Part shown: positions 494 to 61,799 of the stretch, one piece after another
Layout of the letters: each line of letters starts with the position of its first letter
Numbering within the stretch: position 1 is the stretch's first letter
Assembly (NCBI GenBank): GCA_964016885.1
Contig: OZ024740.1
Span: 242,792,001-242,856,000, forward strand
Reading direction: 5' to 3'
Length of the DNA stretch: 64,000 nucleotides
Origin: Eledone cirrhosa
Taxonomy: Eukaryota
Made by a program: the position numbers and the translations under genes
The notes under the pieces: generated by a model
Seen by the model: only the letters and a program-made list of their open reading frames with translations
Databases searched by the model: none
Told to the model about the DNA's origin: nothing

Positions 494-646
494 AATATAT
501 ATATATATATATATATATATAATTGGTGTGGGATGCTTAAAGCGTCTGTAAATGGTAGGCCGTTTGAGCACTCAATGCTCTTACAGAGCAGAGTATGATA
601 TCACATAAGAAACGGGGAATCAATGTTGTGACGAATAAAATTTATT

Positions 647-743
647 AGACATATTACAATCGTTTCTCTGGCGACCAGCTCGCGGCACGATCGATGTAAT
701 GATCGAACCTGACTCTGAAATCACAAGGTCCTCAGATACGTCT
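647..743 (-). ncRNA. Type-I hammerhead ribozyme motif with long stem II
   Basis: Minus strand agacgtat-CUGAGGA-(about 62 nt)-GAAAC-gauu-GUA-auaugucu; 8-bp stem I; followed by AATAAA. Confidence 0.6.
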
Positions 744-2104
744 CGATTCTACGAAACAGAGTTTCCAAATGTCCAGTTACACCCGCGGCCCTCACTCGGC
801 AGCTTAGATCCTGTTGTTGTCATTTGATAAGTGGTCAAGAATTGTACACATCATCGGTATTTTTGGCCACTCATGGCCATCCTATATTTGGTTCCTTTCA
901 TTTGCCACCTGTCAATCAAAGTTGTTTCTTAAATCGGAATTACTACTGTAGGCGGTAAGGGGTTGTATGATTGAATCACTCACGCCCTGTCGCAGCCTTC
1001 CTAACCTGTAGGCGCCCGCACCCATGTCCATGTTTCGCGCAGGCCTGATACATATGGGTACTTATACACCCACAGCGATCACATACACACCCAAAACTGT
1101 ATTATATGTGACAATCACGGTAGATATTGAATGTGCAGCGAATACTTAGAAAGAACTTTAAAAAAAATGGAAAAAACATTTAAAAGAACGTTTCAGAAAA
1201 ACACACCCTCAAAATACCTTAAAAAACACGCATTTCAAAAAGAAAAACCCTGTAAAAAGAACGTTTTTAAAAGAATGCTTGAAAGTATCTTTCAAAAAAG
1301 TTATTTCAAAGGTATTTTTGATAAATATACACATATCTACACACACACACACTGTACTCAGGAAAGCGTATATAGTTAAGACGCTGTTAATACAGATGAA
1401 AAAATACAGATGAAAAAATGGAAGATCTACACATACATATGTATACACTTACACAGACATGTTCATACAAATACATCCACCCAGACATGTATATACATGT
1501 ATGCATATGTGCATCGACACACATACATACATGTACCTGCACATGGGCATGCTTATACATCTCAAAAAAAGCACATACTTGATGAATACCTACATATCCA
1601 CACATATGACACATAAAATATTATATGAGACGACATTCTTGAGGCTTGGACCCAACCCATTCATGTGGCAATATAAGCCTGAAAGTGCATGCACAATATG
1701 CATAAATGCAATAGCTATGTAGTAGCCATGCACACATCATAGATAACATGGGTGGCACATATATAAATGTGTGTACGTACATAAAATAAAATAAAATAAA
1801 ATACTGGAAAAATGAATGTATACATGAAAAAGATGCAGAGGGGGTATCTGTTCACCTGGACATATTGGGATGTGCATAAAGTTGCATAAAATACCTGAGG
1901 ACTGTGATGCATAGGGTTATATAAGATACAGAAGGACTGATGATCCAAGGGACTGGGTAAGAGCCTGCACATCAACCATGCGCATGAGACAGGTTTCATG
2001 ACAGGTGGACACAGGGGACCGTGTAAATATACACAAACAAGTTATATATATTGTGAATGTGTAGAATATCCTTTTCATAACAGTATATATGAAATGTACA
2101 TGGA

Positions 2105-16119: not shown

Positions 16120-17160
16120 ACTGGAAGGTAATATCAGTAGTGGTAGACCACTCAGTCCATGGGATGGGTTAGGTAGAAGAGGTAACAGCACCATACCGAG
16201 AACAATTGTTTCATCTTAGCAGATCTTTAGCTCAGACTGGTCATGGTTATACGGAATAGGAAGAATAACCACATGAACGTGCATGCGCAGAACGTTCACT
16301 TCACGCAAGCGATATAATACCACGGGCGAAAGGTGTAAGGGAGATAACTGAAAAAGAGTTGGTAAGAAAATTGGAATGTTGTTGTTATTCAATCCAGAGC
16401 TTTATAGTTATGTAAGAGGTGTTTCAAGACATGTGGACAACGTGTGGAGATTTCATTTCTTGAGTTTAGACAATCGCTATTGCGTAATCTCCTTAGAATA
16501 TTTATCCGTTCAGCAATACATAGTCCACAAGACGAATTGCCCCTTCCATATGGTTTGGACTTAGTGATGGCTTTCCATTGAATGAAGTAAGTCTATACTT
16601 GAGTCCTTGAGGGCCCATACATGGCTCGCGAGTTTCGTGGTTGATCGTTTATATGGGTACCTAAAGGTCGACTGATTGTTCAAGAAACATTCCTTAAATT
16701 GGTCCTCTGCCATAGCCACATAGGATTTGACCTCCTGTGGTTGATTTGGTCAGTTGAAAGTGACCATGGCTTCATAAACTACAGTGGGTGTGTTGCATTG
16801 CTGTTGGAGGAGACAAGCTTCAGGCTTTCGGCAAGAACACCCTGGTGGGGTGCTGCTCTTAGGGTTGTTGGTTATGTGGGCCTTCTCACTCAACGTTAAA
16901 ACTAATGTAGGAGAAAATTGTTTAGCCCTCTTAGATAGACACTTTCCTATAGGTCACAAATACTGCTCCATCTTTAACAGACACAGAGTAAAACTAGGAT
17001 ACTCCTACACTAAGAATATGAAGGCCCACATCACCAACAGTCCTAAGAGCAGCACCCCACCAAGGTGCTCTTGCCGAAGGTTCTTATATATTTGATATAT
17101 TTGATATATATTTATCCTAATCGAGCCCTCTTTGGATTTTAGTCTTCAAATTTATTATTA
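16120..17160 (-). mobile_element. Penelope-like element remnant (GIY-YIG region, pLTR) with inverted 5' part
   Basis: Minus strand SYVAMAEDQFKE...STFRY..TKLASHVWALK...CGLCIAERINI; plus strand PFSLNVKTNVG..LLDRHFP..IFN..VKLGYS; degenerate hammerhead at 16196-16235. Confidence 0.75.
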
Positions 17161-17164
17161 TTAC

Positions 17165-17220
<56 letters not shown>

Positions 17221-17221
<1 letters not shown>

Positions 17222-20200
17222 TGATCAGATCAAGCTAGTAGCACAAAGTCAGCGAAGGGAAAATGAAGCATGTGTCAGTGAAAACGAGGTAAACTGTAAC
17301 ACTTTGAATCCCAGGGTTGGGGCGGAATCACTGGCAACAGAACAAATTAAAGAAAGGAGCGAAAAAGTGGAGGGAGTGCATGCTCAGGATGAAACTCCAA
17401 ATGAAAATAATGAGATCGTAAATGATAAAGAAATGAATGAGAATGAACTTGCCAACTTGAAGGATGAAATTATGATCGAATGGATGAAAATGAAAGAATC
17501 TGACATGGGACAACGAGACACCCTCCCTAAGATCCAGAACTCCAAACAGAACCAAAAGATAATACACAAGACTAACATAATTCTCAAAAACATTATCATC
17601 ACAAACAAACTAAACATTACTGACTTAAATCATCTCTATTATGCATCGGCTAAAGTCACCACTCACTTATGTGGAGTGAAGATGAAAAAACAAAGGAATT
17701 CCCACAAGAAATCTACTTGGCAAGATAACATCAATCGCCAAATAAACCTTCTCCGATCTGACATAGAAATTTTAACAAACTATAAAGTAGGTGAACATGT
17801 TAAACAAACTAAACTTAGAAAATTGCAAAAAAAGTACAGTATAAGATCAACATGTGACATAGACATGCTGATAGAAACAATCAAGCAAAAAGTGTCGGCC
17901 AAAGCTGCTCGTATAAGGCGCTTTGAAAAACGATCTAGATTCTATAAGGACAATAATATGTTCAAAAACAACCAAAGAAACTTCTACAGAAAAATTGGTA
18001 AGTCAACAATAACTGCTAAATCAATACCACCCAAGGAGGAAGTGCAAGAATTCTGGGAAAAGATCTGGGCCGAAGAAAAAGTTCATAACATACATGCCCC
18101 ATGGATAGACAGACAAATGAAAGAAACAGCTCACCTTGAAGAGCAAACATGGGAAAATATAACAGTTGAACAGCTGCGCTTGGCTCTAAGAAAAACCAGC
18201 AAATGGAAATCCCCAGGAAAAGACAAAATACAAAACTTTTGGATAAATGCCTTCACAGAGTCTCATGAGCTGTTAGCCCAACTTTACAATGAAATAGTTA
18301 AGGAGCCAGAAAAGATACCATCATGGCTAGTTAACGGCATTACATTCTTGCTACCGAAGAATGATGAGACAAACAATCCCCAAAATTACAGACCGATAAC
18401 CTGCTTGACCACAATGTATAAAATTTTAACATCAGTCCTAACTGAATACACATATGACCACCTGATAACAAATGACCTATTTCCCATTGAGCAGAAAGGG
18501 TGTAAACGAGGCTCATATGGCTGTAAGGATCAGCTTCTGGTTAACAAAATGATACTGGAAGATTGTCATAATAGACACAAAAATCTATCGATTGCTTGGA
18601 TAGATTATAAAAAAGCATTCGATAGTTTGCCACACAGTTGGATTGAAAAATGTTTAGAGATTTTCAAAATATCCTCCGTTGTCAGGAGGTTTTTGTCATT
18701 CAGTATGAGGACATGGAGAACGACACTCCTTTTGAATAGTGAAACAAAATCACTGGAAGCTGGAGAAGTTAACATTAATTGTGGAATTTTTCAGGGTGAC
18801 TCTTTATCACCGCTTTTATTCTGCATCGCACTTATACCATTAAGTAAAATGCTCAATGAAACAAAACATGGATATAGAGTCTATGACAAAACCATTAATC
18901 ACCTGTTCTACATGGATGACCTGAAACTATTTGCAAAAAATGATGAACAATTGCAAGGGCTATTATCCACTGTGAAGCAGTTCAGTGATGACATTAAAAT
19001 GGAGTTTGGACTAGATAAATGCGCCAAAGCAACGTTCACCAGAGGAAAGCTGCTGAAAAGTTCAGACATTAATCTTGATCGGCGGAATGTGATAACAGAA
19101 CTTGATCAAGAGGAAACTTACAAATATCCAGGTGTTTGTGAAGGAGACGGAATCAAGCACTCGACAATGAGGGAAAGGATAAGGAAGGAATGTTACCGCA
19201 GAGTCAGAGCAATCTTAAGAACGGAATTGAATGCAAGGAATAGGATCGATGCCATAAACACGCTTGCCATACCAGTAGTAACTTACAGTTACAATGTCAT
19301 CAACTGGTCAAGCACAGAGATCCGTAGGCTCGATACAAAAATTAGAAAATTCTTAACCATGCACAGAATGCATCACCCTAAGGCAGATATAGATAGAATA
19401 TATCTCCCTAGGAAAGAAGGAGGACGTGGGTTAATCCAGTTAGACATTGCGTTGAAAACTGCAACAATTGGATTATCCACATATCTAAGGGAATCACATG
19501 ATTGGATGATCAAACTCGTTTTGAAACACGAAAGCACCAAAAGATCATATTCCATTACAAAAGATGCACAAAGATACAGTAATGGACTACAAATTTCAGA
19601 AGTCCCATTTACTGCTGAAATGGAAAACACAGAAAAAGCAAAGCAGGTAAAAGTAACTGCAAAGAAAGAACTGCTACAGAAACTGGCTAAGAAATGGCAA
19701 GAAAAGCCTCTGTATGGAAAATACCCAGAGCGAGCTAACAATCCTGATGTTGACAAAACTTTAACCCATCAGTGGTTGGCATCCTCTGGACTGAAATCGG
19801 AGACTGAAGGACTGATTATATCGGCACAAGATCAGTGTCTGCCAACAAAAAATTACCAAGCCAACATAATAAAAAATGGGTGCAGCCCATTATGCCGTGT
19901 ATGCAAAAAACAACCAGAGACCATTGACCATATAATTTCAATGTGCAGTCCTATAGCTCCAACCGAATACCTAAACAGGCATGACAGAGCTGCACAATAC
20001 ATACATTGGATAATGTGTAAGCATTTTGACCTGCCCCATCAAAAGAATTGGTGGGAGCATCAACCACCTCCCATACTTGAAAAAGATCACATCTCAATCT
20101 TGTGGAACTTTAGCATCCAAACAGACCGAAAAATAGATGCAAATAGACCTGATATAATATTGAAGGACTTTCAAAGGAGGGTATGCCTGCTAATTGATAT

Positions 20201-20600
20201 GTCTGTTCCAATAGATATGAATGTATCTATAAAAGCATTTGAAAAATTGAGCAAGTATAAGGACCTGGAGATAGAAATTGGAAAAATGTGGAAATTGAGA
20301 ACTAAAACAATACCAGTGGTTGTAGGCGCTCTGGGAATGATACCTAAGGGGTCTAACGACTACTTATCGCAAATCCCAGGAAACCCGCGTATAGGAGAAA
20401 TACAAAAGATAGTACTAATGGGAACTGCCCATATACTAAGGAAGATCCTGTCAATATAAGTACATCACAAGTCTAAACACTAAGGATGCATGTGTGAATA
20501 TGTATGTTCTTTCTTGAACATGGCGGACCTTGTTGTCTCTTGTGGTCACTGGTTGTGACTTGGTGATAACTCGTATAAACATAAAGCAAGATAAATGCAA
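17221..20600 (+). mobile_element. R4/Dong-clade non-LTR retrotransposon, 5'-truncated, inserted in (TAA)n
   Basis: (TAA)n on both sides (17173-17220, 20599-20620); single RT-CCHC-RLE ORF; Dong elements are known to target (TAA)n. Confidence 0.9.
17304..20459 (+). CDS. Reverse transcriptase + CCHC knuckle + restriction-like endonuclease (1051 aa; frame stays open back into the flanking repeat)
   Basis: NYRPITCL, IDYKKAFDS, GIFQGDSLSP, YMDD, CRVC-x8-H-x4-C, RHD, RPDI..LIDMSVP, KLSKYKDL. Confidence 0.92.
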   Translation: MNPRVGAESLATEQIKERSEKVEGVHAQDETPNENNEIVNDKEMNENELANLKDEIMIEWMKMKESDMGQRDTLPKIQNSKQNQKIIHKTNIILKNIIITNKLNITDLNHLYYASAKVTTHLCGVKMKKQRNSHKKSTWQDNINRQINLLRSDIEILTNYKVGEHVKQTKLRKLQKKYSIRSTCDIDMLIETIKQKVSAKAARIRRFEKRSRFYKDNNMFKNNQRNFYRKIGKSTITAKSIPPKEEVQEFWEKIWAEEKVHNIHAPWIDRQMKETAHLEEQTWENITVEQLRLALRKTSKWKSPGKDKIQNFWINAFTESHELLAQLYNEIVKEPEKIPSWLVNGITFLLPKNDETNNPQNYRPITCLTTMYKILTSVLTEYTYDHLITNDLFPIEQKGCKRGSYGCKDQLLVNKMILEDCHNRHKNLSIAWIDYKKAFDSLPHSWIEKCLEIFKISSVVRRFLSFSMRTWRTTLLLNSETKSLEAGEVNINCGIFQGDSLSPLLFCIALIPLSKMLNETKHGYRVYDKTINHLFYMDDLKLFAKNDEQLQGLLSTVKQFSDDIKMEFGLDKCAKATFTRGKLLKSSDINLDRRNVITELDQEETYKYPGVCEGDGIKHSTMRERIRKECYRRVRAILRTELNARNRIDAINTLAIPVVTYSYNVINWSSTEIRRLDTKIRKFLTMHRMHHPKADIDRIYLPRKEGGRGLIQLDIALKTATIGLSTYLRESHDWMIKLVLKHESTKRSYSITKDAQRYSNGLQISEVPFTAEMENTEKAKQVKVTAKKELLQKLAKKWQEKPLYGKYPERANNPDVDKTLTHQWLASSGLKSETEGLIISAQDQCLPTKNYQANIIKNGCSPLCRVCKKQPETIDHIISMCSPIAPTEYLNRHDRAAQYIHWIMCKHFDLPHQKNWWEHQPPPILEKDHISILWNFSIQTDRKIDANRPDIILKDFQRRVCLLIDMSVPIDMNVSIKAFEKLSKYKDLEIEIGKMWKLRTKTIPVVVGALGMIPKGSNDYLSQIPGNPRIGEIQKIVLMGTAHILRKILSI

Positions 20601-25349: not shown

Positions 25350-26610
25350 CAATCATCATCACTATTTAACATTTTTTATGCTATCATAAGTTAGACAAAT
25401 TGTCCCATTGTGAGACAAGTCAGACCAGATCTTACTCACAAAAAGCTGTTTCTGGCCTGGTTTCTATGGTTGGGTTGGATGCCCTTCCTAATGCTAACCC
25501 GTTTACAGTGTGGACTGGGTGGTTTTTATTGTGGAACCAAATCAATCAACTGACAGGGTGAATTGGGTGCTTTTTGTCATGTCATCAGCATGACCACTTT
25601 CAAAGTAGGTTGGATGCTTGTCATGTGATCAACTGAACCACTTTACAAGGTAGGCTGGATGCTTTTTGTTGTGTCACTAACGCAACAACTTTACAGTGAA
25701 GACTCGTTGATTTTTGTCATGTCACCATCACGACCATCTCATAAGATGGACTAGTTGTGGTTTGTCGCGTCACTATCACAACCACTTTATAGGGTGGACT
25801 GAGTGCTTTTTGCTGTGTCATCAGCATGAACACTGAACAGGGTAAAGTGAGTGCTCTTTTGTCATGTCACAAACATGACCACCTTACAGAGCGGACTAAG
25901 AACTTTTAGCCATTTCAGCAGCATTGTGGGAGAGCATGTTCAGGTTTCCATGCTTGTATGCATGGGTTAGTCAAGAGAGATGTATCAGATGTGGAAGGTG
26001 GAAGCTGGAGGAGAGTATAGTGCATGTATGCAGGATGGGAATTGCAGAGGTAAGTCTAGTGTGCGGTACTTAGCTGGTGAAGGGTGGAATGTTAAGATGT
26101 GGGAGATGCATGGATGGAAGGGAGAAGATCCAATGCATATTAATGTCCTCTAGATGTTTGCTTCCTACTATGCACATGGAAAGGTATGTCTTCTGTATTA
26201 CTCCATAAAACCAGAGATCTTAATCCTGTGTCATTACCTTTGACAGGTTTAATTGTGTGAGTTCAACTTTTATCACTTCACATCAGACTTTCCTAGGTCT
26301 TCCTACTCCATAGCTTCCATCACCTTTGAGCACCCTGCACATTTTTATACAGCTGTATCTCCTCCATATGCATCACATGTATAATAGCATTGCAATCTCC
26401 TCTCTTGCACATTGCATCTGCCCCCTATTATGTTTCTCTCTCAGACCATTTCCACTTTGCCATTCATGTATATTACTATTAAACATCCATAAAAGCATGC
26501 AAGCTTCATTTCTTTCCAATTTTCATAGGTCCTTTACATACAGCACCCAGGTCTCACTTACATTCAGTATTGTTGTTTATACATAAACATCATGCAATCT
26601 GCTCATTATT
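25350..26610 (-). mobile_element. Older RTE 3' fragment with degenerate array of about 46 bp in the 3' UTR
   Basis: Decayed ETW..ERNEACML..GRPRK at 26190-26610; about 9 eroded units at 25500-25910. Confidence 0.7.
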
Positions 26611-26650
26611 ATGTGTATATATATGCATATATATATATATATCTATGCAG

Positions 26651-26768
26651 ACCACTATATAGTGGAGGAGCTGCTTCACTACTGGCCTCTCATCGGGTGC
26701 AGGACAAAATTATGTCCTGTGCCCAATGAGAGGCTAGTATTGAAGCAGCTCCTTCAGTATATAGTGGT
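26651..26768. repeat. Imperfect palindrome (about 56-bp arms, 6-nt loop) within (TA)n
   Basis: accactatat...gcaggaca aaatta tgtcctgt...atatagtggt. Confidence 0.85.
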
Positions 26769-26939
26769 GGCCATAAATGGACACTGATATATATATATAT
26801 ATATATACATATAATGTAGGAGGTGAGTTTTATTGTAGTACAATAAAGCAATGCAGATATCGGATAAGAAGCACTCTACGGTTTGTAGGACTGGAGTATA
26901 CATAATATATAAGATCAAAAGATGGTTAAAGGAGTTCCA

Positions 26940-27012
26940 TGTATTTTATTATGCGCATTTCAAAAACAAACATCATCATGCAATAATATTTGTGTTTTCA
27001 TCAGATAAAACA
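26940..27012 (-). ncRNA. Minimal type-I hammerhead ribozyme (left arm)
   Basis: uuuuau-CUGAUGA-stem II-GAAAU-gcgc-AUA-auaaaa. Confidence 0.65.
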
Positions 27013-27144
27013 GGAGGACATGATATGAAGGCTAAAAAACACTTTTTTTCCCAATATCACACATCAATCTAAAACTACTTTTCATATGTTGATTTAAAAC
27101 TGCACTATCCACAAGTGTTTTTTAGCCTTCATATCATGTCCTCC

Positions 27145-27217
27145 TGTTTTATCTGATGAAAACACAAATATTATTGCATGATGATGTTTGTTTTTGAAAT
27201 GCGCATAATAAGATACA
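27145..27217 (+). ncRNA. Minimal type-I hammerhead ribozyme (right arm)
   Basis: CTGATGA 27153-27159, GAAA 27196-27199, palindromic GCGC loop, AUA triplet ending at 27207. Confidence 0.65.
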
Positions 27218-27294
27218 TGGAACTCCTTTAACCATCTTTTGATCTTATATATTATATATACATATATATATACATATATATATATACATATATA

Positions 27295-33281: not shown

Positions 33282-33362
33282 ATAGGAAAAAGTATGACCC
33301 CGACGGCAGAGCTCTAGCCGAAACGGCTAGAGCTCTGCCGTCGGGGTCATACTTTTTCCTAT
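33282..33362. repeat. Perfect hairpin, 39-bp arms, AAA loop
   Basis: Exact reverse complement. Confidence 0.95.
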
Positions 33363-33437
33363 TTCCCACTTTACTATCCTAAGTATTGAGTACTCTGGTG
33401 CGTTATGGTCCATATGGTTCTTACCACAATTCCTTTG

Positions 33438-46190: not shown

Positions 46191-46540
46191 TGTTTCTACT
46201 TTTTAGCACAAGGCCAGCAATTATCCCAGTACATTACTGGTACTATATTTTATCGACCCCCCGTAAGGATGAAAGGCAAAGTTAACCTTGGCAGGATTTG
46301 AACTCAGACTGTAAAGGGATGTAACTGTATGTTGGAAACCATGGCATCTGACCCGCTACCAATACTGTCATAATAATTGTTTCTACTTTTGGCACAAGGC
46401 CAGCAATTACCCAGTGCATTACTGGTACTTTATTTTATCGACCCCGTAAGGATGAAAGGCAAAGTCAACCTCGGCGGGATTTGATCTCAGATCCCGCCGA
46501 GGTTGACTTTGCCTTTCATCCTTACGGGGTCGATAAAATA
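46188..46540 (-). mobile_element. Two tandem Meta-like SINEs, the second ending in a 50-bp fold-back
   Basis: Arms 46431-46480 and 46491-46540. Confidence 0.85.
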
Positions 46541-46569
46541 CTGTCATAATAATAATAATAATAATAAAT

Positions 46570-47148
46570 AGGATGAGGTGTTAGATCTTCAATACATTTA
46601 TTGAGGTGTGATGCGCATTTTATGATTGATCAGCTGAAGGTTTGATCTGTATCGATTGGCCCCAACTCTGGAATGAAAAGCTCATAAGACTTCTGTTATG
46701 GTAATGACAGAATGATTCTCTTTTTATTATTATCATTATACTCTGCTTAGTACAACACCAATATACCTACTGGAAACTATTCATCTATTGCTCACTTTGG
46801 GGAACCTCCTGTAACTGGATGTTACAATCCCTAAATTATATATATATATATATAACAATAATAATAATACAAGGATGATTTGTTAGGCCTTCATTACTTT
46901 TATTGATTGGTGACACATGTTTTGCTATTGATCAGCTCACGGTTCAGTCTGTATCGATCTGGCCCAACACTGGAATCAAAAGCTCATTGGACCTTTCTAT
47001 CATTACAACAGCAAGAGGTCTGACGAGCTTTTCATTCCACAGTCGGGCAAGATCGACATAGATCGAACCTTGAGCTGATCAATTGTGAAACCCATGTCCC
47101 TTATCAATACACATAATGAAGACTTAATAAATTGTCCTTGTATTATTA
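46570..47148. repeat. Three copies (-,-,+) of a hammerhead-bearing repeat of about 140 bp
   Basis: 46570-46707(-), 46862-46997(-), 47000-47148(+) align with each other and with 647-743. Confidence 0.7.
47017..47102 (+). ncRNA. Hammerhead motif with intact core and long stem II
   Basis: CTGACGA 47020-47026, GAAAC 47087-47091, GTC 47096-47098; stems imperfect. Confidence 0.5.
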
Positions 47149-47159
47149 TATTTACACTC

Positions 47160-47352
47160 GGGCGGAGGATTGGCAGTATCGGTAGAGGGTCGGACGCCAT
47201 GCTTTGCAGCATAGAGTTACGGCCCTTTGCAGTCTGAGTTCAAATGCCGCTGAGGTTAACTTTGCCTTTCATCCTTACGGGGTCGGTCGATAAAATAAAG
47301 TACCAGTAATGCACTGGGATAATTGTTGGCCTTGTGCCAAAAGTAGAAACAA
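47160..47352 (+). mobile_element. Full-length tRNA-derived SINE (Meta-domain-like)
   Basis: Box A TGGCAGTATCGG, box B GAGTTCAAAT, central GCCTTTCATCC block, end AGTAGAAACAATTATT. Confidence 0.8.
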
Positions 47353-47480
47353 TTATTATATTTACACTCTGTTTAGCTCTACAACTCGCTACAGACGTGA
47401 ACCTAAACATTGAGTGCTCACCTGGATGAGCCTACAGTAACTTCACGTTACACTCCCTGGATATATATATATATGTGTGT

Positions 47481-47901: not shown

Positions 47902-48940
47902 ATCATCATCATCATCATCATCATCATCACCGTTTTACGTCCGTTCTTCCATGCTAGCATGGGTTAGACGGGTTGTCCTGTTGTGGGCAGTGTCTGGTCG
48001 GCTGACCATGCCTTGCTCATACAGGAACTGATTCTGGTTTGATTTCTACAGCTGGATGCCCTTCCTAACACCAACCTCATTTACAGTGAGTGCTGGGTGC
48101 TTTTTGGTGGCGCCTACATGTCCACTTTACAGTGTGGGCTGGGTGCTTTTCCGTGGCGCCTACACGTCCACTTTACAGTGTGGGCTGGGTGCTTTTCCGT
48201 GGCGCCTACACGTCCACTTTACAGTGTGGGCTGGGTGCTTTTCCGTGGCGCTACACGTCCACTTTACAGTGTGGGCTGGGTGCTTTTTCGTGGTGCCTAC
48301 ACGTCCACTTTACAGTGTGGGCTGGGTGCTTTTCCGTGGCGCCTACACGTCCACTTTACAGTGTGGGCTGGGTGCTTTTCCGTGGCGCCTACACGTCCAC
48401 TTTACAGTGTGGGCTGGGTGCTTTTCCGTGGCGCCTACACGTCCACTTTACAGTGTGGGCTGGGTGCTTTTCCATGGCGCCTACACGTCCACTTTACAGT
48501 GTGGGCTGGGTGCTTTTCCGTGGCGCCTACACGTCCACTTTACAGTGTGGGCTGGGTGCTTTTTCGTGGTGCCTACACGTCCACTTTACAGTGTGGGCTG
48601 GGTGCTTTTCCGTGGCGCCTACACGTCCACTTTACAGTGTGGGCTGGGTGCTTTTCCATGGCGCCTACACGTCCACTTTACAGTGTGTGCTGGGTGCTTT
48701 TTGGTGGTGCCTACACGTCCACTTTACAGTGAGTGCTGGGTGCTTTTTGGTGGCGCCTACACGTCCACTTTACAGTGTGGGTTGGGTGCTTTTTCGTGGC
48801 GCCTACACGTCCACTTTACAGTGTGGGCTGGGTGCTTTTTGGTGGCGCCTACACGTCCACTTTACAGTGTGGGCTGGGTGCTTTTTATCCGTGGCGCCTA
48901 CACGACCCCCTTGCAGTGTATATATGGGGGGATTCTTGTG
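47902..48940 (-). mobile_element. RTE 3' UTR fragment hosting a minisatellite
   Basis: 47902-48110 is the reverse complement of 25110-25310. Confidence 0.85.
48080..48918. repeat. 46-bp minisatellite, about 18 copies
   Basis: Unit ttacagtgtgggctgggtgcttttccgtggcgcctacacgtccact. Confidence 0.95.
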
Positions 48941-49599
48941 TCTCTGTGTGTGTGTGCATATGTGAATGCTACAGTGTAGCAACAATTTACTGTTATAAAC
49001 AGTGGTAGTATTGTATTTTTGCAGTGTTCTGTACTACTCCACCAACTTTATAACAGTTAGAGACATCAGACACGCTATAATATGTATGAAGTTGAATGAA
49101 AAGTTATTGTTATCATTGTTGTGGGTTTTAGCTCCAGATCAGCTCTGATCATGCACACCTGTGAACAAAGGTATTAAAGCTCTGACAATCTTGTCTTTAT
49201 TTCTTCTTTCAAGTGTCCTTTTTTGAATATGTAATTTGAAGGAGATTTATTTGACTGATATTTTAGCAAGTTGAGCAAATACACAGACTTCTTTGTTGGC
49301 TCAGTTATATTTAGGAAATATTACTATTCACTATTGTTGTTTGTTAAAAGAAAAGCAAAGTACTCCCAGCATGAGGTTGGTTGGAAGGACACTAAAATTT
49401 GAGAAACTTATTGAAACTTTATAAAACAGATACAATGGTAAAAAAAAATCATTACCTAATGGAATTGTGAAACAAAAACTATATTCTAAATAACACTTAA
49501 AACACTTGAAATATAAAAATATTAAAACTTCATAAATATATACTCCACTCATGAGAAATTCAAAAACCCACCATCTAAACGTAATGTGTTAAGTAGCTG

Positions 49600-59985: not shown

Positions 59986-60315
59986 TGCAAACATACAGAC
60001 AGATACTTTAATGCTGTATAATTTGCAGTTATTATTTCCAAGAACTGTCCTTGAGTGATGATTTAAGTATGTAGTATAGCTGGAACAAAGTCCTCAGTTT
60101 AACTCATTCTTAAATGCTTACTAAGCAATATGAATAGCTTACACTGCAATATATCCGATTAAAATGATAATCTTACTTTTTATCTTTTAATCCTAACTTG
60201 TAATCATTTCTTTAAAATTGCTATTTATTTGCATTGATATATATATATATAGTAAATAATATATATATATACACACATACACAAACATTCACAGACACAC
60301 ACACACATATATATA

Positions 60316-60637
60316 TCATCATCATCATCATCATCATCATTTTACGTCCGCTCTTCCCTGCTTGCAAGGGTGGGAAGGGTCTTATTCAGCACAGCATCTC
60401 TCCACTTGTCACGGTCCTTCGTCATCTCCACCGTGAGCTTCAGCAATCTGAGGTCTGTTCTCACCACCTCCACCCATGTTTTTCGTGGTCTACCTCTATC
60501 ATGTCTTCCTTCAACTGGCATTTCCAGGCACTTCTTCACCCATTGGTCATCCTCCATGCGCATCACATGTCCATACCACCGCAGTCTCCTCTCTTGCACA
60601 CCACACTCCATCCCCCTCAGACACAGTTTCTCTCTCA

Positions 60638-60642
<5 letters not shown>
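60316..60642 (-). mobile_element. RTE 3' fragment (left arm of fold-back)
   Basis: ERRLRWYGHV...GRPRKTW; (ATG)n tail. Confidence 0.9.
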
Positions 60643-60686
<44 letters not shown>

Positions 60687-60720
60687 CATATATATACATA
60701 TATATATACATATATATATA

Positions 60721-61208
60721 CGAAAGGCCGGTTGTATGATGCCTGTGTGAGGAGCGCGATGCTGCATGGTAGTGAGACATGGGCAGCAACCGCAGAGGAT
60801 ATGCGACGGCTGGAGAGAAATGAGGCAAGCATGCTCCGTTGGATGTGCAGTGTAAATGTGCGTGAACGACGCAGCATAAATGTGTTGAGAGAGAAACTGT
60901 GTCTGAGAGGGATAGAATGTAGTGTACGGGAGAGGAGACTGAGGTGGTATGGACATGTGATGCGCATGGAGGATGACCGATGGGTGAAGAAGTGCCAGGA
61001 AATGCCAGTTGAAGGAAGACGTGGTAGAGGTAGACCACGAAAAACATGGGCGGAGGTGGTGAGAACAGACCTCAGATCATTGAAGCTCACGGTGGAGATG
61101 ACGAGGGACCGTGACGAGTGGAGAGATGCTGTGCTGAATAAGACCCGTCCCACCCTTGCAAGCAGGGAAAAGCGGACGTAAAATGATGATGATGATGATG
61201 ATGATGAT
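60721..61208 (+). mobile_element. RTE 3' fragment (right arm)
   Basis: KGRLYDAC...HGSETW...GRPRKTW; ORF runs into the (ATG)n tail. Confidence 0.9.
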
Positions 61209-61799
61209 ACACACAGATAATATTTCATCATCCTAATTTGATGTGTTTTCCATGCTAGCGTTATGGTGTTATCAGATGTAAGCACTCTACACTGTGGGTA
61301 CCATAAGGTATTACATAAAAGGTATCAGACAGAGTATCAATATTAATAAAAGGAAAAGAGACAGTATCATATATTTAACATCAGTTTATTTCATTGCATC
61401 ATACTCATTATGTACATTTTAAAGGCATCAAAATGTTGTTACACAACAGTTATCTGATGTGTTGTTCACATTTCAGTATCAAGCAAGCTTATGCTTACTT
61501 GATACTAAAATGTAAACATCTCTTCGATGACATACATATCAAAACCAAAAACAAAACTTTATTTTCATTTACATTTAAACACCTATCTCATGACAGTGCA
61601 TTGGATAACTGCTGTATAACAACTTTTTGATGTCTTTGAAATGTACATTAGGGTATGATGTGAGATACTGCCTCTCTTGCTTTTCTAAATATGCATTTAT
61701 ATATATGTGTATATAAATCAGAGAAGTCTTGATAAAAGTTATTTATATGCAATAATTTAACAGGCATGATTTCATTTTGCATGAGTTCATTTTGCAGCC

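Follow-up and report, generated by a model that had tools for sequence, protein, structure and literature searches.

Hammerhead-like repeats that lie a few hundred nt apart may be tandem units of a retrozyme or the ends of a larger mobile element, and we investigated which of the two is found at positions 46570..47148 of a stretch of Eledone cirrhosa DNA. This stretch, called the window here, is 64,000 nt long (contig OZ024740.1 of assembly GCA_964016885.1, positions 242,792,001-242,856,000, forward strand), and all coordinates below refer to it. The window is repeat-rich animal DNA with many microsatellites, SINEs and LINE pieces, and we take its SINEs to be octopus-like in look. Our analysis indicated that the copies belong to an old, abundant family of hammerhead-bearing ends of the Penelope-like element (PLE) type and are not a retrozyme array at this locus. 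Most probably, they represent modules from the 3' terminus (pseudo-LTR) of a PLE family with a high copy number, now in a decayed state.

Homology of the Copies

The original prediction described three diverged copies, two on the minus strand and one inverted, and this description was borne out. The cores are located at 46688-46610 (c1, minus strand), 46990-46912 (c2, minus strand) and 47020-47098 (c3, plus strand), and the spacing between c1 and c2 is 302 nt. The blastn identities were 79% for c1/c2, 78% for c2/c3 and 72% for c1/c3 (E-values from 1e-26 to 6e-18). A distant homolog had been proposed at 647-743, and it was recovered by an HMM built from c1-c3 alone, which placed it at 736-642 on the minus strand (E = 7.4e-7; next match, E = 0.29). 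The identity of this far copy to c1-c3 was 64-67%. None of the six pairwise scores among the four copies was reached by shuffled sequences (0/300).

Hammerhead Core, Stems and Fold

All four copies could be aligned in the order stem I, core, stem II, GAAA, stem III, site of cleavage, stem I and AATAAA. Stem III has 2 bp with a 4-nt loop in every copy, and stem II has 60 nt in c1-c3 and 62 nt in the far copy. The far hammerhead (649..741, minus strand) has an intact core, a 6-bp stem I and a GUA cleavage triplet. Both core halves (CUGANGA and GAAA) and the UH cleavage site were intact in two of the four copies, c3 and the far copy. The same two copies were the only window matches of a strict core pattern with a 45-75 nt spacer, a range picked after the copies had been seen; 0.09 matches were expected, and two matches were reached in 0/100 shuffles.

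Each copy had been described as damaged at different positions, and this was confirmed. The changes G5U and G12A leave c1 with a dead core, and U4C, G5A and G12A do the same in c2; in c3 the core is intact, the first stem I pair is broken and the base of stem II is weakened. The predicted consensus needed two corrections. Its 60 nt proved to be the length of the entire stem II, and the distance between the two stem II motifs that it was said to separate is 45 nt. The core, given as CUGAUGA, becomes CYGACGA by the majority letters of the family (positions 4 and 7). The remark that the extended stem II is atypical was supported, as it forms a structured domain of 60-62 nt. Judged by the core halves, the stems and the majority letters, the copies would carry a type I hammerhead, with stem I open and a long structured stem II, which agrees with the hammerhead identity first proposed.

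The drawn hammerhead structure pairs 87% of 100 cells in the four sequences, compared with 23-45% for slid partners. Four of its 25 pairs change on both sides, a count equalled in 11/500 shuffles. Three covariation measures gave 10-36/500 shuffles, and the pair-type count was unremarkable (225/500). These covariation values, and those of the tail below, are based on 3-4 sequences and on structures drawn from those sequences. The double change of c1 at 15.2-16.2 in stem III, one of these four, probably reflects two CpG decays, as the family majority has C and G there.

No copy folded unusually well (fold z of 0.64, −0.99, −0.66 and −1.00), and the named hammerhead fold was 13-24 kcal/mol above the MFE in all four. 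The hammerhead fold of the copies was not recovered by RNAalifold. Rfam gave no match at the gathering threshold, and no hammerhead was present among its 16 window matches at E-values up to 10. Spurious miRNA-like Rfam matches at 46431-46540 derive from a near-perfect foldback of a SINE fragment.

Two Probable Insertions with Inverted Arms and One-Sided Tails

The first copy, c1 (46552..46722, minus strand), consists of a leader of ~35 nt, the dead hammerhead (46691-46607), AATAAA and (ATT)n. Next to it on the plus strand is a tail, X1 (46726..46835), which has a bulged helix A at 46740-46789 and a helix B at 46811-46825 and ends at (TA)n. A (TA)n tract at 46836..46853, likely the target, lies before c2 (46854..46994, minus strand). 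This copy begins at stem I and contains the dead hammerhead (46993-46909), AATAAA and (ATT)n. It is followed by c3 (46995..47159, plus strand), with a 25-nt leader and a hammerhead at 47017-47101 whose predicted cleavage is after 47098. A second tail, X2 (47352..47461, plus strand), has helix A at 47366-47415 and helix B at 47437-47451 and also ends at (TA)n. It is split from c3 by a later SINE insertion (47160..47351, plus strand), tRNA-type by eye with A/B-box-like motifs. The SINE is flanked by an exact 18-bp target duplication (47142-47159 = 47352-47369), and other copies of it are present in the window.

The order at the locus is, accordingly, inverted c1, forward X1, (TA)n, inverted c2, forward c3 with X2, and (TA)n. 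It is best read as two insertions, A and B, each with an inverted left arm that has no tail and a forward arm that has one. The evidence for the tail comes from the c1-c2 spacer. Its 110 nt of X1 match X2 at 47352-47460 on the plus strand (69%). Compared with the sequence 3' of c3, the spacer matched in antisense only (score 70, 0/1000 shuffles). In the sense of c1 and c2 no match was found (68/1000 shuffles; upstream of c2, 267/1000). On these grounds, X can be taken as the 3' tail of the element.

In the tail, helix A carries a bulge of 2 nt, and helix B lies immediately ahead of (TA)n. Among three tail sequences, 5 of 16 pairs change on both sides (4/500 shuffles); the covariation measures gave 2-4/500 shuffles, and the pair types 31/500. 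A second hammerhead in the tail was considered and rejected by eye, as both copies have two core mismatches.

A tail was also found at the far copy (521..596, minus strand), with helix A at 594-570 and helix B at 546-532, followed by (TA)n. It was the best non-training match of a covariance model of tails X1 and X2 alone (E = 0.002), although the far copy had been considered when the structure for this model was drawn. When the far tail was simply aligned to X1 and X2, the match was weak (87 and 17/1000 shuffles). From the cleavage site to helix A there are 58 nt for c3, with the SINE set aside, and 61 nt for the far copy. The order of hammerhead, tail and (TA)n therefore recurs at c3 with X2 and at the far copy. 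The complete module has ~300 nt and comprises the leader, the hammerhead, AATAAA, an ATT-rich spacer, a two-hairpin tail of ~100 nt and the (TA)n target. In its hammerhead, stem I has 3 bp, stem II has 60 nt, and stem III has 2 bp and a palindromic loop.

The original prediction had seen in this locus the tandem hammerhead layout of non-LTR retrozymes. This part was not supported here, since the spacer is an inverted tail plus (TA)n and both same-strand cores are dead. Its alternative of a pLTR-derived family gained support from the inverted arms, the one-sided tail and (TA)n. A hidden 140-nt tandem, which would appear as terminal redundancy of the 5' and 3' ends of the unit, was not significant (125 and 100/1000 shuffles).

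Upstream of the far copy, a broken frame (735-1118, minus strand) ends at the UGA of the far core; by eye it is GIY-YIG-like and resembles a PLE C-terminus. Pfam found nothing relevant in the three frames upstream of the far copy (3/3), where an irrelevant match had E = 0.045. For one frame, phmmer gave no match and a word search gave 0/19 candidates. The PLE assignment is inferred from the terminal modules.

Tail-Like Sequences and Other Repeats in the Window

An unrelated, younger element is located at 33282..33436 (plus strand). Its parts are a perfect foldback of 39 bp with GAAAC at the centre, a hammerhead-like 3' half in which the palindromic stem III is longer, and a helix A-like tail at 33368-33394. 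It is bounded by (TA)n on both sides and occurs as a single copy in the window. The element was the best new match of the model R1, built from three tails (E = 0.007). Its foldback arms are 100% identical and are joined at the core, and its layout of inverted arm, tail and (TA)n is that of insertions A and B. Its hammerhead identity is only putative, because the 5' core half is absent. Together with it, all four tails (X1, X2, the far tail and the 33.3-kb tail) end at (TA)n.

A helix A descriptor, written after three of its four matches had been seen, gave 4 matches in the window compared with 0.17 in shuffles, and 0/200 shuffles reached 3. The fourth match, at 25805-25855 (plus strand), falls within another dispersed repeat, and no hammerhead was seen in its vicinity. 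The second-best new match of R1, at 26632-26739 (E = 0.014), was rejected as a tail, for it is a long foldback. The overlapping region 26635-26775 forms a long foldback with imperfect pairing (fold z of −14), is enclosed by (TA)n tracts and has CCGAUGA in one of its arms; it may be a MITE or a further inverted PLE end.

Further repeats were observed in the window. Both arms of an inverted repeat at 26905-27255 fit a minimal type I hammerhead descriptor (27152-27207, plus strand; 27004-26949, minus strand), which may be due to chance or to another family. A tandem array with a 46-bp unit at 47976-49010 derives from a dispersed repeat, which also forms shorter arrays at other places in the window. 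At 60314-61209 there is an inverted duplication of a LINE fragment, with 329-nt arms of 94% complementarity that are 238 nt apart. A near-intact LINE is found at 17121-20600 (plus strand), with an ORF of ~1,080 aa (RVT_1, E = 2e-28), a (TAA)n tail and, by look, a C-terminal restriction-like endonuclease. It is presumably of the R4/Dong type.

Family-Wide Evidence from Public Contigs

Contigs from four public runs were aligned to 46575-47145; runs X1-X3 represent one sample of organism A, and run X4 represents organism B. The numbers of aligned contigs were 3,628, 3,531, 3,492 and 1,280. These numbers suggest that the family has many hundreds to thousands of copies at the least, where contigs are not to be equated with loci. 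No run contains more than 0.29 of the sampled words, and so the contigs are probably not from the individual of the window.

Of 85 rows of differences between the contigs and the locus, 40 were listed and were mapped onto the drawn structure. Among these 40, invariant core positions were hit by five, and four of the five restore the canonical base. Another 18 of the 40 listed rows affect paired positions. In 12 of them a mismatch is mended, in 3 a wobble becomes a Watson-Crick pair, 2 form a joint pair swap, and in 1 the mismatch stays; none of the 18 breaks a pair. The remaining 17 of the 40 fall in loops, free core positions and flanks. The majority letters restore G5 and G12 in both c1 and c2, and also three of the four listed helix A positions. 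Loop III is GCGC in c1, and in c2 by majority; together with stem III it makes an 8-nt palindrome.

The family varies at two core positions. Position 7 is C in 71% of the depth at 46986 (run X1), and position 4 is C in 53, 56, 58 and 43% of the depth at 46687 in the four runs. G5 is kept in 84% of the depth (run X1). Lineages with U4 and lineages with C4 have probably both spread, because masters that all had C4 would lose C4 and G5 about equally by CpG decay. A loose-end consensus at 47041 (36-52 contigs, runs X1-X3, agreement ~0.6) revealed a sister lineage with the core CCGUCGA. This consensus agrees between runs up to ~35 nt upstream of the core, and beyond that point the three one-sample runs differ. 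The fading hints at a common short 5' boundary and hence at a non-autonomous form.

The summed depth of run X1, which is not a copy number, was 161,584 at 47055-47074 in distal stem II and 3,907 at 47015-47034, a 40-fold peak. The peak is only a hint, because c3 has no listed difference over 47060-47083. Joints in contigs from other loci also reflected the module. The sense hammerhead-tail joints 46578>46724, 47098>46724 and 47128>46720 were each found in three of the four runs, and so was the inverted joint 46989>46735. In these data the (TA)n tract is skipped, and a likeness of 80% with short sides can yield false joints; tandem arrays may occur elsewhere in the genome.

Alternative Origins

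The best surviving alternative, which we still regard as improbable, is a non-LTR retrozyme that exists mainly as head-to-tail monomers, its RNA being cut at successive hammerheads and circularised, with this locus a scrambled relic. No ORF lies next to c1-c3, the hammerhead is of type I and the copy number is high, all of which would suit such an element, as would a loose-end consensus that fades like a short non-coding unit. By the retrozyme sizes described in passages of PMC7229834, the ~300-nt module is within range. In a part of bioRxiv 10.64898/2026.07.22.740005, animal retrozymes are argued to be pLTR-derived, and with such an origin retrozymes and PLE ends are related classes. Like the non-LTR retrozymes described in portions of both sources, this family is non-coding, has a type I hammerhead and a unit length of a few hundred nt, and probably originated from PLEs. 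However, the c1-c2 spacer is the tail in antisense and is present once, and the same-strand copies c1 and c2 have incomplete hammerheads with 2-3 core changes each. No head-to-tail monomer joint was found among the 15 joints listed of 129 or the 12 bridged joints listed of 102. Passages of PMC7229834 define retrozymes by tandem units with complete hammerheads and by circular RNA, and neither was seen at this locus, where we found no run of at least two consecutive head-to-tail units. In addition, the coral retrozyme hammerheads described there have typical helix sizes and loop contacts, unlike those of this family.

A hammerhead SINE moved by a LINE (for example 17121-20459, with its (TAA)n end) would explain the (ATT)n at the ends of c1 and c2, which resembles that of neighbouring SINEs, and would make the inverted layout a result of independent AT-rich insertions. 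The near-intact LINE ORF of the window could supply the machinery, and hammerhead SINE-like repeats of schistosomes are described in passages of PMC6765202. We consider this explanation very unlikely. The copies showed no similarity to the LINE 3' end (blastn and by eye), and neither promoter boxes nor a target duplication were seen by eye. Moreover, independent insertions leave unexplained the 33.3-kb foldback, with identical arms joined at the core. Finally, it is hardly credible that the repeat is real and its hammerhead a chance likeness or a long-dead scaffold never active in the family, for although Rfam has no match, the fold is the MFE in no copy and the sister lineage has two core changes in the loose-end consensus, the core halves and stems I and III are kept across families that are 64-67% alike, stem I has double changes and the majority letters restore G5 and G12.

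Comparison with Known PLEs

The preferred reading, ends of PLE type, was compared with published systems. According to passages of PMC4209133, helix III of PLE hammerheads is short and palindromic, and the hammerheads occur in pairs, one on each strand, at distances of 100-700 bp; such a palindrome is treated there as a sign of hammerheads that presumably cut as dimers. Like the copies studied here, the hammerheads of metazoan PLE pseudo-LTRs in those passages are of type I with a short stem I and a palindromic helix III, and they are mostly single or in opposite-strand pairs and form heterogeneous subfamilies. Two differences were found. What these passages call a large helix II has 6-8 bp, whereas stem II here is a multi-helix domain of 60-62 nt, and the U4C lineages common here are unlike the hammerheads they describe. 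A natural viroid U4C variant had much reduced activity according to a part of PMC3088659.

In the PLE insertions described in passages of PMC8557442, an inverted copy with a truncated 5' end is present and only one end bears a tail; (TA)n is preferred by several clades. The Hydra clade and other hammerhead-bearing PLEs described there share with this family a 3' hammerhead, a short tail, (TA)n and inverted truncated copies. By eye, helix A is present 3' of the hammerhead in the consensi Hydra-2_Amil and Hydra-2_Ajap, with a variant in Hydra-1_Crog, and was absent by eye in three of the six new Hydra-clade consensi in the same part of that source. In its File S2, stem II plus loop is at most 24 nt in 31 of 34 rows, and the three deviating rows have 28, ~48 and 53 nt. 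'Half-core' Naiads have spacers of 35-50 nt in these passages. Long hammerhead spacers thus appear to have a partial precedent in three of the 34 rows of File S2 and in the half-core Naiads. The octopus element Hydra-1_Obim, as given there, has a short stem II and a 3' end different from that of this family. Identity with the published octopus Naiad or Hydra consensi was considered and set aside, since four family motifs had 0 occurrences in the part of the PMC8557442 supplement at hand, where line breaks may hide matches.

Passages of PMC11167929 report that an Anolis PLE protein cuts at ATT, that two RT starts define the tail, and that RNA with a dead hammerhead was inserted. Poseidon of Anolis carolinensis, as described there, has AT-rich/ATT targets, two 3' ends with or without the tail, and a hammerhead upstream of the tail, as in this family. 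Its ORF starts inside the hammerhead and its tail has 30-40 nt; here there is no ORF, and the tail has two hairpins and ~100 nt, about three times the PLE length published in those passages.

In the literature outside Repbase and Dfam, covered mostly by titles and listings, neither helix A nor the conservation of a multi-helix stem II of 60 nt across PLE-type families was described. We also searched for the family in other sequence collections. A metagenome scan with a family 20-mer gave one locus, where the match was confined to the 20-mer in a bacterial-looking gene. A viral contig scan gave 21 loci, none of which extended past the motif, and there were 0 core matches in all 22 viral and metagenome loci. 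A prokaryote genome scan with the family motif gave 0 loci.

Proposed Mechanism and Implications

Within the PLE reading, we lean slightly towards a derivative that is short and non-autonomous; the chances that the copies are instead truncated ends of a PLE with coding capacity are close to even. By analogy with the PLE literature, a transcript that bears the module would be bound by the RT-endonuclease of a PLE, and AT-rich DNA would be nicked. Reverse transcription may then begin at either of two places, the ATT spacer or the tail end. The product would consist of two adjacent arms, an inverted one that is 5'-truncated and has no tail, and a forward one that includes the tail. The hammerhead would probably cut only weakly, as a dimer through the palindromic stem III or with the help of a protein, and it is perhaps dispensable for insertion. 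Most likely, the long stem II and the tail hairpins serve in protein binding or in folding.

A bolder idea, which we offer tentatively and think rather unlikely, is that this is a PLE-dependent, non-autonomous family of thousands of copies in which the 60-nt stem II is kept better than catalysis, as U4C and U4C with A6U were amplified, and that the shared bulged tail hairpin is a PLE RT signal that sets the second 3' end across unrelated families and phyla.

The association of hammerheads with PLE ends has been known since 2014 and is in itself ordinary. What is unusual here is the long structured stem II, the U4C lineages and the two tail hairpins kept by compensatory changes. A 60-nt stem II escapes Rfam here and would likewise be missed by descriptors with short loops, so that hammerheads may be undercounted in genomes of this kind. 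The family offers candidates for the role of the hammerhead in PLEs and for the RNA signal of PLE proteins, namely the distal part of stem II, the tail helix with its bulge and the natural core variants that are still able to spread.
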